Below are positions 40,866-43,300 of a stretch of DNA of 64,000 nucleotides, piece after piece (position 1 is the stretch's first letter; every line of letters begins with the position of its first letter). Under the pieces are notes generated by a model, which saw only the letters and a list, made by a program, of their open reading frames with translations, was not told the origin of the DNA and did not search any database. Location: NCBI GenBank assembly GCA_013287435.1, contig JABDDU010000003.1, forward strand, positions 21,685 to 85,684. Reading direction: 5' to 3'. A program made the translations under genes and the position numbers. The stretch is from Verrucomicrobiota bacterium (GTDB lineage: Bacteria > Pseudomonadota > Gammaproteobacteria > Coxiellales > Coxiellaceae).

Positions 40866-41690
40866 TTACAATTTTAAGAATAAAATACCAGCTGCGTGAT
40901 GCACCGTATCATGATCTATAATCAGCGCGTATTGAAAACAGGATGCGCCAATGGATTGCGTCATGAGTGACAGACAGTAATAAATAAATCCAGAACTCAT
41001 CACATAGTCAACTTCAATAATCTGATAACTATCAAAAAGTTTTTTTAATGCACTATGACGTTTTAGATAAATTGACACTAAATTTTTTGATACATTAAAA
41101 TTTAATAATAATGTCATAATCAGAGATACATCAAATGGATGATTCACTATATCGCAACTTAATATATTGATTGATTTTTCACTTTTCATCTCTTGTGATG
41201 CAATAATAGCACCAACATAATTAATATCAGGAACAGGGATTTCGTTGGTGTACTTTAAAAATAACCATGCATTTTCAATGGAACAACAAGCAACCGTGTT
41301 AACATTTTGATGAGTTACAATTTTTAATAGGATATGAAAAGCATAAAAAACACATAAAATTCCACAATCACGTACATCCAACAGCGACGCAGTGAGTGAA
41401 TATTTATTTTTAATATACAATTCAGGAACCGCATAATCCATATTCCAATTCATTGACCATGAGGGAAATGCAATCGTTTGAATTTTTTTAAGATCTTCAA
41501 TCGTGTTTATTTTGTCAAATAATACTTCAATTAATTTGTCATAAGGATAAATAGTTTGAGACATATCCATATCCCATTTAATCTGATAACGAAGATATAA
41601 ATCGTTAAAATAATTTTTGACTCTTTGGCTCACGGGAAGCATTGCATGTCTCTCAAAGTCAGTTTTATAAATAACGCTATTAATGAACAC
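40866..41690 (-). CDS. Hypothetical protein, possibly a degenerate thiolase-fold (KASIII-like) subunit
   Basis: LLDVRDCGILCVFYAFHILL resembles the FabH active-site Cys region. The downstream His and Asn motifs are not evident. The ORF overlaps the ACP gene by 11 nt. Confidence 0.3.
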   Translation of the reverse strand: MFINSVIYKTDFERHAMLPVSQRVKNYFNDLYLRYQIKWDMDMSQTIYPYDKLIEVLFDKINTIEDLKKIQTIAFPSWSMNWNMDYAVPELYIKNKYSLTASLLDVRDCGILCVFYAFHILLKIVTHQNVNTVACCSIENAWLFLKYTNEIPVPDINYVGAIIASQEMKSEKSINILSCDIVNHPFDVSLIMTLLLNFNVSKNLVSIYLKRHSALKKLFDSYQIIEVDYVMSSGFIYYCLSLMTQSIGASCFQYALIIDHDTVHHAAGILFLKL

Positions 41691-41949
41691 TGGAATCCCT
41701 TGACATCATTTGTAGATTGACATATCGAACAACGGAGGAAACTGTTTCTAAATCTTGCATCTGCAATGTTTCAGGATCAACATAAAAACCATCAATACTT
41801 TCTTCTAATTTCATCAAAAACATTAATGAGCTCATAGAATCCAATTGAAGATCATTTTTAAGATGATGTGTTGAATGTATGGATGTAATATTTGAAAAAT
41901 TAAGCGTGCTTGCTAATGCACTTTTTACCAGTATTTCTGTATTTTGCAT
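41680..41949 (-). CDS. Acyl/peptidyl carrier protein
   Basis: 89 aa with the phosphopantetheine attachment motif DLQLDSMSSLMFLMKLEE. Confidence 0.75.
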   Translation of the reverse strand: MQNTEILVKSALASTLNFSNITSIHSTHHLKNDLQLDSMSSLMFLMKLEESIDGFYVDPETLQMQDLETVSSVVRYVNLQMMSRDSSVH

Positions 41950-41971
41950 TGTACTCTCCCGATAAAGTTGT

Positions 41972-43300
41972 TTAATAAAAAATTGATTTCAAATCAATAT
42001 TGGTTGATAAAATATCATCGTTTGTTTCACGACGACGCGCGATATAAAATTTTTCGTGATGATAAAGTACTTCAGCTGGACTACCATGGCTTAAAAACCG
42101 CCCAGGCGATGCGGTTAATCCGTAAGCACCTGTATTTAAGAGCACAATCAAGTCTCCAGTATGCACAATTGGTAATTCAATATCCTTTAATAAAATATCG
42201 CCCGGTGTGCATAAAGGGCCAACCACTTGATACAATTTTTTTTGATTAGCATCGACCATTCTATCTAGGGGGACAAAATGCATTGGAAAATTACGATGAA
42301 CAAATGATCCAAGACCGGTTGCTGCAAAATGACAGTGCATTCCCGCATCAACAATGCAATAATTTTTATTTTTATTTTTTTTAACATATTGTACTTCCGA
42401 AATTAAAAACCCCGATTCAGCAATAAAATATCTGCCTAATTCCATGATAAATTTTGTTGCTGGAAAAATTTTTTGATATTGATCAAATAACATATTAATA
42501 TCAGTGATTAATTCAACAATATTGATTTCGCATTCGTTCGAAAAATAAGGAATACCGATGCCGCCGCCAACATCAATGGTTTGACAATCTATTCCAAATT
42601 TTTCATAAAGAAATTTTGCTAACGATAATATATTAGCGATATTTTCTTTTATTGAGCGCGAATCTAATACTCGGCTAGCATTATAAATTTGAATGCCTTC
42701 TAATATTACAAACTCACACTGTTGTATTTTTTCAATGCTCAACACAAATTGGCTGACTTCAATTCCAAATTGCGATGCCACACCACTCATCTTAATAGGT
42801 GCATTAAGAATGCAAAAATCAGGATTTACTCTAATCATAATAGACATTTTTATTTGATATTTTTCTGAGAGGGAATTAATCAAATAAACTTCCTCTATTG
42901 ATTCGCAAACAATAGATTTAATTTTATTTTGAATACAACTCTCAATTTCCTCTGCCTTTTTTGCGGGACCGACAAAAATAATTTGTTCGGCTCTAAAACC
43001 TGCTTTGAGAGCGATTAATAGTTCATTTTTTGACGAAACTTCGCAATTAGCACCTAAGAAATTGAAGTATTGACATATGGCAAGCGTCGGATTCGCTTTA
43101 ATGGAATAAAAAAGTTCACAGGATGGCGTCAATAATTCTCTTAATGTTAAGTATTGTTCTCGTATGATATTCGTATCATATAAAAATGTTGGGGTGCTAA
43201 AATGCTGAGACACTTCTGTAAATAAATTATTTGATAATGCTTTCATTTGACACCCCAACAAATCGTAGTGAAATAACTCAACACTTATTTTGCTGAACAA
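41972..43300 (-). CDS. PLP-dependent decarboxylase, Orn/DAP/Arg decarboxylase family (fold type III, LysA-like)
   Basis: FYSIKANP (PLP lysine), DVGGGIGIPY, GPLCTPGD and GAYGLTASP motifs. Confidence 0.8.
   Translation of the reverse strand: MFSKISVELFHYDLLGCQMKALSNNLFTEVSQHFSTPTFLYDTNIIREQYLTLRELLTPSCELFYSIKANPTLAICQYFNFLGANCEVSSKNELLIALKAGFRAEQIIFVGPAKKAEEIESCIQNKIKSIVCESIEEVYLINSLSEKYQIKMSIMIRVNPDFCILNAPIKMSGVASQFGIEVSQFVLSIEKIQQCEFVILEGIQIYNASRVLDSRSIKENIANILSLAKFLYEKFGIDCQTIDVGGGIGIPYFSNECEINIVELITDINMLFDQYQKIFPATKFIMELGRYFIAESGFLISEVQYVKKNKNKNYCIVDAGMHCHFAATGLGSFVHRNFPMHFVPLDRMVDANQKKLYQVVGPLCTPGDILLKDIELPIVHTGDLIVLLNTGAYGLTASPGRFLSHGSPAEVLYHHEKFYIARRRETNDDILSTNIDLKSIFY

Follow-up and report, generated by a model that had tools for sequence, protein, structure and literature searches.

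On the minus strand of a 64,000-nt stretch of bacterial DNA (contig JABDDU010000003.1 of assembly GCA_013287435.1, positions 21,685 to 85,684; hereafter the window), a gene for a fold-type III pyridoxal phosphate (PLP) decarboxylase of the LysA/ornithine decarboxylase family adjoins a gene for a stand-alone 89-aa acyl carrier protein (ACP). Does this enzyme catalyze the last step of lysine biosynthesis, or does it act on an amino acid held by the carrier, as a prediction made from the DNA letters had suggested? We report that, judged by sequence, the decarboxylase is a relative of the butirosin enzyme BtrK and not LysA. We consider it likely that this BtrK/VinO/BolN-type enzyme would strip the alpha-carboxyl group of an acidic amino acid only once that amino acid is thioesterified to the 89-aa ACP.

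A BtrK-type decarboxylase

The decarboxylase matches the Pfam families Orn_Arg_deC_N (PF02784) and Orn_DAP_Arg_deC (PF00278). Its best match in the PDB is BtrK (7RU7/2J66), which aligns full length (residues 9-421) with 323 bits, compared with 184 bits for the best LysA; the 7RU7 record is named "L-glutamyl-[BtrI acyl-carrier protein] decarboxylase". Against NCBIfam, the protein scores 325 bits on TIGR03099 and 288.9 bits on the lysA model TIGR01048, whereas true LysA proteins of related genomes show the reverse order, scoring 512-537 bits against TIGR01048 and ~200 against TIGR03099. It falls below the curated cut-off of both the TIGR01048 equivalog (297.9 bits) and TIGR03099 (478 bits), true members of the latter from genomes G025 and G034 scoring 615-617 bits.

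A maximum-likelihood tree places the enzyme more precisely. Its 54 rows comprise the window protein, seven cluster orthologues, 28 other BtrK-like proteins, two exosortase-type decarboxylases, 10 monofunctional and three bifunctional LysA, two other decarboxylases of ~400 aa and SpeA as the outgroup. The window protein and its seven orthologues group with BtrK-like decarboxylases whose genes adjoin an ACP gene and with the exosortase-A type, in a clade (SH-aLRT 99) that stands apart from all 13 LysA on a stem 2.2 long; the TIGR03099 members are sister to the BtrK-like proteins. The placement of BtrK itself was judged by PDB scores and a printed alignment only.

The same division is seen at individual residues. 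We defined as diagnostic the columns that are at least 90% conserved within the 13 LysA and within the 36 BtrK-like proteins and whose residues differ between the two groups (n = 15). The window decarboxylase carries the BtrK-type residue in 15/15 of these columns, and the TIGR03099 members share 11/15. From LysA to the window protein, RP becomes AA, CE(S/T) becomes CTP and MSSNYNSR becomes ASPxxFLSH; in LysA, the motifs RP, CE(S/T) and SNYNSR presumably bind the distal center of diaminopimelate (DAP). BtrK too shows the CTP and SPxxFLxH motifs in the printed alignment, read by eye. Catalytic and PLP positions common to LysA and the BtrK-like proteins are intact (K50, GGG227-229, E269, R272, C346 and Y375). 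The original prediction had held that the enzyme was unlikely to be the housekeeping lysA and had proposed a phylogeny as a check; the phylogeny bears it out, as do the 15 replaced residues and the co-occurrence of the gene with a bifunctional LysA in two relatives (G023 and G014).

The carrier protein gene is a conserved neighbor

The decarboxylase and ACP genes are 22 nt apart, as had been predicted, and both the coordinates and the spacing proved right: the spacer (41950-41971) runs from the decarboxylase stop codon (41972-41974, minus strand) to the ACP ATG at 41949 and contains a Shine-Dalgarno-like GGGAGAG run. The predicted decarboxylase length of 442 aa holds for the longest open reading frame (ORF), which begins at TTG 43300. 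The probable start is ATG 43246, giving a protein of 424 aa, the length at which an identical protein is annotated publicly (P0001); alignment with orthologues begins only at about residue 15-23 of the 442-aa ORF. In the ACP, phosphopantetheine would be attached to Ser38 within an LDSM motif whose D37-S38 is invariant among nine sequences. The carrier is 64-74% identical among six orthologues from G001-G006/G023 and 51% identical to that of G014.

Both genes belong to a run of 12 minus-strand ORFs extending from 43758 down to 32619 with intergenic gaps of -41 to +46 nt, in the order orf157, decarboxylase, ACP, orf274, orf219, ACAD412, AMP504, KAS309, AMP517, TGL293, KAS312 and orf179 (Table 1). 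These ORFs form one tightly packed operon, and it does hold, on the same strand, the two adenylating enzymes that had been assigned to it (AMP504 and AMP517). Upstream lies an AT-rich spacer of ~0.6 kb (43759-44348), whose sole ORF (110 aa, 43853-44185) has no family match. In a promoter and terminator scan of 32300-44400, shuffled sequence had more promoter-like sites than the region itself.

The ACP gene lies directly downstream of the decarboxylase gene in 8/8 cluster-bearing genomes. We also examined 79 distant loci, mostly from Actinomycetota with some from Paenibacillus, Priestia and Pseudomonas, whose decarboxylases are 37-43% identical to the window protein: in 50 of them an ACP domain starts at most 600 nt from the decarboxylase stop. 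Because gene order is conserved across the relatives and an ACP is found near distant homologues, the adjacency is not due to chance, and its occurrence in 50/79 distant loci makes it a property of the decarboxylase clade. An ATP-grasp gene lies directly upstream in 52/79 of these loci and a VinN-like ligase gene downstream in 15/79, and 37/79 combine all five of the following genes: ATP-grasp, decarboxylase, adjacent ACP, KASIII (ketoacyl-ACP synthase III) and acyl-CoA dehydrogenase (ACAD). A locus from Priestia sp. (L020:7582-19772) encodes, in order, a KASIII, an ATP-grasp protein, the decarboxylase, an ACP, a 290-aa protein, a second KASIII, a 259-aa protein, an ACAD, a 317-aa protein, a MATE protein, an arginase-family protein and an LpxL-like acyltransferase. 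With 333 bits on the lysA model, over the cut-off, the decarboxylase of this locus would be mis-annotated as LysA.

The substrates of BtrK, CtaF, FlvO and VinO are Glu, Asp or 3-methyl-Asp tethered to an ACP (PMC11350588, PMC11284099, PMC7183216). The BtrK match, the tree clade and the conserved ACP adjacency support the core of the original prediction, namely decarboxylation on the carrier by the logic of BtrK. Alternatively, the enzyme might use a free substrate, be it a plain amino acid, an acid of the beta-glutamate type (the case of IdnL3) or one of the acylated amino acids (the case of SbnH/FslC); the product amine or amino acid would then be loaded or acylated later, and the ACP adjacency would reflect membership of the same pathway. 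Members of the wider DAP decarboxylase-related clade do use free small molecules (FslC, SbnH and MccE, PMC7857480; IdnL3, PMC11284099), and the window protein has a weak NCBIfam match to FslC (95 bits). A complex prediction of two decarboxylase copies with the ACP, run without controls, scored 0.01 and counts neither for nor against binding. We give both the free substrate and the later loading little chance, since the nearest characterized relative is the ACP-dependent BtrK, with the N-citrylornithine decarboxylase 7KH2 matching at only 87 bits, since the ACP gene is directly downstream in most distant homologues, and since the vicenistatin and bolagladin pathways do not pass through the decarboxylated amino acid in free form (PMC11284099, PMC7756342).

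A VinN-like loader

How might an acidic amino acid reach the carrier? The best PDB matches of AMP504 are 3WVN/3WV4 (192 bits), which we take to be VinN, their numbering matching VinN D230, S299 and R331 once a 16-residue tag offset is allowed. These three residues align to D201, T271 and R303 of AMP504, with Ser replaced by Thr at 271. In VinN, Asp230 recognizes the alpha-amino group of the substrate, and Ser299 and Arg331 recognize its alpha-carboxyl group (PMC7756342). AMP504 fits an enzyme built to grip the head group of an alpha-amino acid while activating the side-chain carboxyl, which would leave the alpha-carboxyl free for the decarboxylase. Asp is slightly favored over Glu as the substrate because loaders of this type (VinN, FlvN and, as proposed, BolO) take Asp or 3-methyl-Asp.

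The prediction had invoked ATP-dependent loading in the manner of BtrJ. An adenylating loader is indeed encoded; its type is that of VinN and not the ATP-grasp type of BtrJ, and Pfam detects no ATP-grasp domain among the 12 operon proteins. The closest precedent for the whole cassette is, for this reason, vicenistatin/fluvirucin and above all bolagladin. The exosortase-A-associated pair TIGR03098/TIGR03099 provides the best NCBIfam models for AMP504 (a ligase model, 267 bits) and for the decarboxylase; as both scores lie well under the curated cut-offs (592 bits for TIGR03098), neither protein is a member of this pair, and there is no exosortase context in the window.

The second adenylating enzyme, AMP517, scores 224 bits on the AA-adenyl-dom model and 200 bits on DltA. 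Its best PDB match is 4OXI, with DltA entries close behind, and the PDB search reveals no specific likeness to VinM. In G004 it is fused to a transglutaminase-like domain (798 aa).

The ACP, one adenylating enzyme and ACAD412 might instead constitute a prolyl-carrier oxidation cassette, as in PltF/PltL/PltE or RedM/RedO/RedW, yielding a pyrrolyl-S-carrier while the decarboxylase separately makes an amine acceptor. ACAD412 has weak NCBIfam matches to RedW (56 bits) and PigA (38 bits), and both adenylating enzymes match the L-prolyl-carrier ligase 6O6E (115-120 bits). However, the RedW and PigA scores are far under the cut-offs (650 and 500 bits) and also under the matches of ACAD412 to ordinary acyl-CoA dehydrogenases, AMP504 is closest to VinN and keeps the residues that recognize acidic amino acids, and such a cassette leaves the wide ACP adjacency of the decarboxylase clade unexplained. 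Given the weak RedW/PigA scores and the VinN-like character of AMP504, we rejected this arrangement as very improbable.

Lysine genes in relatives

The family to which these genomes belong behaves like Coxiellaceae, and its usual form of LysA is a bifunctional aspartate kinase/DAP decarboxylase of ~865 aa. G023 and G014 carry both this enzyme and the BtrK-like decarboxylase. In genus g1 (G001-G007, five of them 97-100% complete), no gene scoring as LysA, monofunctional or bifunctional, was found save the cluster decarboxylase in G001 and G004. The complete congeners G005 and G007 have no BtrK-like gene and no other gene over the LysA cut-off; the genus therefore appears to live without LysA, and may be auxotrophic for lysine. 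A separate lysA elsewhere, which had been named as a further check, exists in the relatives G023 and G014 in the bifunctional form, and none was found in the window genome (59% complete) or its genus. Several genus g1 genomes also encode a decarboxylase of ~395-430 aa, which scores ~130 bits on the lysA model.

That the decarboxylase is the organism's own LysA, performing the last step of lysine synthesis and lying by chance beside a biosynthetic operon, is extremely improbable: apart from SpeA it is the only LysA-like gene found in the window genome, the same holds in the complete congeners G001-G004, its orthologues carry the LysA name in public records and its TIGR01048 score is near the cut-off, but it falls outside the LysA clade with all 15 LysA-diagnostic residues replaced, G005 and G007 do without either gene, G023 and G014 carry it beside the family's bifunctional LysA, and its gene sits, translationally packed, among those of an AT-rich accessory island.

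Comparison with known systems

Bolagladin/gladiochelin biosynthesis in Burkholderia gladioli employs the same six enzyme types as the operon (BolO, BolC, BolN, BolM/BolP and BolQ): a VinN-like ligase, a free ACP, a BtrK-like decarboxylase, two KASIII homologues and an ACAD together give N-acyl-dehydro-beta-alanyl-ACP. N-acylation is the proposed role of the KASIII homologues there, and desaturation of carrier-bound beta-alanine falls to the ACAD-like enzyme, a route supported by bolN and bolQ deletions (PMC7756342). The likeness includes a ligase with Asp/Ser(Thr)/Arg recognition residues, the Bol proteins being compared here by description and not by sequence. In contrast to the operon, the bolagladin cassette feeds a nonribosomal peptide synthetase (NRPS). 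The operon further encodes AMP517, TGL293, the degenerate thiolase-fold proteins orf274 and orf179, the short ACAD-like orf219 and the secreted beta-helix protein orf157, which are extra relative to bolagladin.

The AHBA side-chain pathway of butirosin (BtrI, BtrJ, BtrK, BtrO/V, BtrH and BtrG), the model chosen in the original prediction, remains apt for the relation of the decarboxylase and for the logic, whereas the bolagladin dehydro-beta-alanine cassette is closer as a whole. BtrK is the closest solved relative of the window enzyme (PMC11350588, PMC7857480), the carrier BtrI is of similar size (87 aa versus 89 aa), and a side-chain-tethered amino acid is decarboxylated. The papain-clan transacylase BtrH finds a parallel in the transglutaminase-fold TGL293. 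The butirosin loader BtrJ is an ATP-grasp enzyme, whereas that of the operon is an AMP-forming adenylating enzyme; the operon also lacks a monooxygenase, a gamma-glutamyl cyclotransferase and aminoglycoside genes, and has ACAD and KASIII genes instead.

The beta-amino-acid starter cassettes of vicenistatin and fluvirucin (VinN/VinL/VinO/VinM/VinK/VinJ; FlvN/L/O) offer a second precedent: vicenistatin too combines one ACP with a pair of adenylating enzymes and a thioester-dependent PLP decarboxylase (PMC11284099, PMC11350588). VinN is the best solved relative of AMP504, and AMP517 could play the role of VinM. Unlike vicenistatin, the operon has no polyketide synthase (PKS), no VinK-type acyltransferase and no VinJ-type peptidase. 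The operon is also reminiscent of the non-canonical thiotemplated (NCT) clusters defined around closthioamide (CtaD/E/F/G), with their stand-alone peptidyl carrier protein, CtaF-type decarboxylase, papain-clan enzyme and frequent KASIII-like genes (PMC7183216). Their defining ATP-grasp ligase (iterative, CtaD/BtrJ-type) is absent here, with a VinN-like ligase in its place, and there is no thioamide synthetase. The KASIII/ACAD set is the commonest uncharacterized NCT family (Dunbar 2020).

A proposed carrier-bound pathway

By its conserved residues, AMP504 would adenylate the side-chain carboxyl of L-Asp or L-Glu and load it onto the phosphopantetheine of ACP Ser38. Homology and gene context suggest that the decarboxylase would then convert isoaspartyl- or isoglutamyl-S-ACP to beta-alanyl- or gamma-aminobutyryl-S-ACP. 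By analogy, the freed amine may be acylated by KAS309 or KAS312 with a fatty acyl thioester, each KASIII perhaps acting together with one of its degenerate thiolase-fold paralogues, orf274 or orf179, and/or aminoacylated by AMP517 in a VinM-like amide formation. ACAD412, perhaps with orf219, might desaturate the acyl chain on the carrier, in the way that BolQ forms dehydro-beta-alanine. The original prediction had the ACAD-like and KASIII-like enzymes act after decarboxylation, for which bolagladin provides the precedent; the order would apply here by analogy only. Finally, and speculatively, TGL293 could transfer or release the product before export. We propose that the operon works without an NRPS or PKS; Pfam finds no NRPS condensation domain in the cluster, nor anywhere in the cluster-bearing G002 (97% complete) and G004 (100% complete).

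Several points weigh against this scheme. The assignment of a tethered substrate draws on homology and synteny, and the steps that follow decarboxylation are drawn by analogy. The decarboxylase family is close to LysA: the window protein lies barely under the lysA cut-off and its orthologues from G001 and G004 pass it (311 and 302 bits), which makes the lysA-model score on its own a weak criterion, and public records annotate the family as "diaminopimelate decarboxylase". One could argue, in a genus where no canonical LysA was found, that the decarboxylase moonlights as one, though two complete congeners have neither. The tree does not include BtrK, VinO, FlvO, BolN or CtaF. Asp and Glu are indistinguishable as substrates by sequence. 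KAS309 and KAS312 keep Cys at the nucleophile position, where BolM has Ser and BolP Thr. Of the Cys-His-Asp triad of the NCT papain-clan enzymes, TGL293 has the fold and invariant C98 and D151, with no invariant His between them; its sole invariant His is H45. Lastly, the G023 cluster ends after the transglutaminase-like gene and lacks AMP517, KAS312 and orf179.

A wider picture can be drawn, which we put forward tentatively and hold possible rather than likely. In it, a self-contained thiotemplated line without NRPS or PKS, on a tRNA-Asn island of small-genome Coxiellaceae-like bacteria, would produce, for export, a new amide of N-acylated (dehydro-)beta-alanine or gamma-aminobutyric acid. 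TGL293 would serve for off-loading or amide formation in place of a thioesterase or condensation domain, tailoring would be carried out by heteromeric KASIII/pseudo-KASIII and ACAD/pseudo-ACAD enzymes, and the secreted beta-helix protein would be the partner or target of the product.

Other proteins of the operon

ACAD412 has the EGT catalytic-base motif and is 56-63% identical to its orthologues in G001-G006/G023 and 43% identical to that of G014. The orthologues are shorter (366-379 aa versus 412), and the last ~27 codons of ACAD412 lie inside an inverted repeat resembling a miniature inverted-repeat transposable element (38999-39079). A second, longer repeat with the same ~20-nt arms and a nested palindrome is found at 45631-45818, between the MFS gene and amiB. 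The neighboring orf219 has no Pfam match; in the ESM Atlas it resembles clusters with Acyl-CoA_dh_1 (feature score 0.96, structure TM 0.71). It lies directly upstream of the ACAD gene in all relatives and is a possible non-catalytic partner of ACAD412.

KAS309 has only remote FabH matches in the PDB. Its C115, H235, H266 and D271 are invariant, with His replacing the Asn of FabH, and KAS312 shows the same invariant Cys/His/His/Asp pattern. orf274, also without a Pfam match, has a structure TM of 0.77 to 3-oxoacyl-ACP synthase clusters of the Atlas. The N-terminal ~170 residues of orf274 have a homologue in orf179 (hhalign between the two families 98%, E 2e-13), whose counterparts in G002, G004 and G014 are longer (263-288 aa).

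TGL293 is a candidate transacylase, off-loading enzyme or deprotecting peptidase. Its AlphaFold2 model (pLDDT 82) has as best Foldseek match 3ISR, a putative cysteine protease (E 1e-4), followed by transglutaminases, with TM ~0.35; a profile search against PDB sequences returned nothing significant (E 0.075). Compared by hhalign with the Priestia proteins, the TGL293 family is unrelated to the 317-aa protein (probability 0.6%) and the orf274 family matches the 290-aa protein weakly (5.6%). On these results we do not claim that such accessory proteins are common to the ATP-grasp-type clusters.

The first gene, orf157, is kept at the same position in 6/7 syntenic relatives and was not detected in G014; the Atlas offers only weak bactofilin/DUF leads. 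A phosphopantetheinyl transferase (PPTase, PF01648) was not found in the window genome (G000, 59% complete) or in G004, while G001, G005 and G007 each have one copy, cluster present or not. There is no sign of a dedicated PPTase for the cluster.

Table 1. Features of the operon and its surroundings in the window
Feature	Coordinates	Strand	Basis
Decarboxylase ORF (BtrK/BolN-type, fold-type III PLP)	41972..43300	-	Pfam, PDB match, tree, diagnostic columns
Stand-alone acyl/peptidyl carrier protein (ACP), 89 aa	41680..41949	-	Pfam PP-binding
AMP504, VinN-like adenylating enzyme, proposed side-chain-carboxyl loader of Asp/Glu	37466..38980	-	PDB and residue match
AMP517, second adenylating enzyme, amino-acid-activating (DltA/NRPS A-domain-like)	34990..36543	-	Pfam AMP-binding
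ACAD412, acyl-CoA dehydrogenase-family flavoenzyme, proposed acyl-ACP desaturase	38997..40235	-	Pfam Acyl-CoA_dh_M and Acyl-CoA_dh_1
orf219, 219 aa, resembles ACAD C-terminal domain	40195..40854	-	ESM Atlas
orf274, 274 aa, degenerate thiolase/KASIII-fold	40866..41690	-	Atlas structure
KAS309, KASIII homologue, proposed acyl-transferring/condensing enzyme	36546..37475	-	Pfam ACP_syn_III_C and ACP_syn_III
KAS312, KASIII homologue, KAS309 paralogue	33205..34143	-	Pfam ACP_syn_III_C
TGL293, transglutaminase-core (papain-like clan) protein	34125..35006	-	Pfam Transglut_core, E 1e-6
orf179, 179 aa, half of degenerate thiolase fold	32619..33158	-	Alignment and hhalign
orf157, 157 aa, first operon gene, Sec-type signal peptide and beta-helix-like repeat	43285..43758	-	Sequence, hydropathy
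tRNA-Asn(GTT), distal island edge	32435..32508	-	ARAGORN
MFS transporter, between operon and amiB	44349..45659	-	Pfam MFS_1

An accessory island at the tRNA-Asn/amiB site

Five genomes of the window's genus share the 12-gene order. In G023, which represents a second genus, the cluster is shorter, with nine genes; the genes are rearranged in G014 and in a metagenome-assembled genome labeled Coxiella sp. The cluster block lies between tRNA-Asn(GTT) and amiB. In G005 the same tRNA adjoins amiB, leaving the site empty, and in G007 the locus holds other cargo, with three large ORFs of 413, 534 and 533 aa (L116:3500-9000). The GC content is 0.29-0.34 in the block versus ~0.39 in its flanks. The low GC content, the empty site in G005 and the other genes in G007 mark the block as an accessory island, and the tRNA-Asn/amiB site looks like an integration hot spot.

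The MFS gene of the window was not found in the syntenic loci of relatives. An RND pump is encoded inside the G014 cluster and beside that of G023; together with the MFS gene, these pumps hint that the product is exported, the MFS protein being a possible exporter. Downstream of the G023 cluster (L014:10586-11286) lie a PrlF/MazE-type antitoxin and PIN-toxin pair and then a convergent RND efflux operon. Elsewhere in this small-genome genus, the ~2-Mb genomes G001 (C64) and G003 (C9/C10) encode NRPS ORFs of ~2,600-6,000 aa, with 10-11 condensation domains per genome, on contigs other than that of the cluster.

Implications

The enzymology is established for BtrK, VinO, FlvO and CtaF (PMC11350588), and the six enzyme types are known together from bolagladin. 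A literature search found no paper on the cluster in Coxiellaceae. What is new is the host lineage, the absence of a megasynthase, the additional proteins (the transglutaminase-fold TGL293, the pseudo-KASIII pair, the short ACAD-like orf219 and the secreted beta-helix orf157) and the pairing of the KASIII/ACAD set, accompanied in other phyla by an ATP-grasp loader, with a loader of the VinN type. The operon links these two described flavors of cassette. It also extends the logic of carrier-tethered decarboxylation, as in butirosin, vicenistatin, fluvirucin, closthioamide and bolagladin, to a Coxiella-family lineage not known for natural products, in a compact 12-gene form, free of a megasynthase, that could lend itself to heterologous expression.

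The decarboxylase clade is at the same time an annotation trap, scoring at or over the lysA cut-off and carrying the LysA name in public records. Because the clade is annotated as LysA, metabolic reconstructions would wrongly credit these small-genome bacteria with lysine synthesis.

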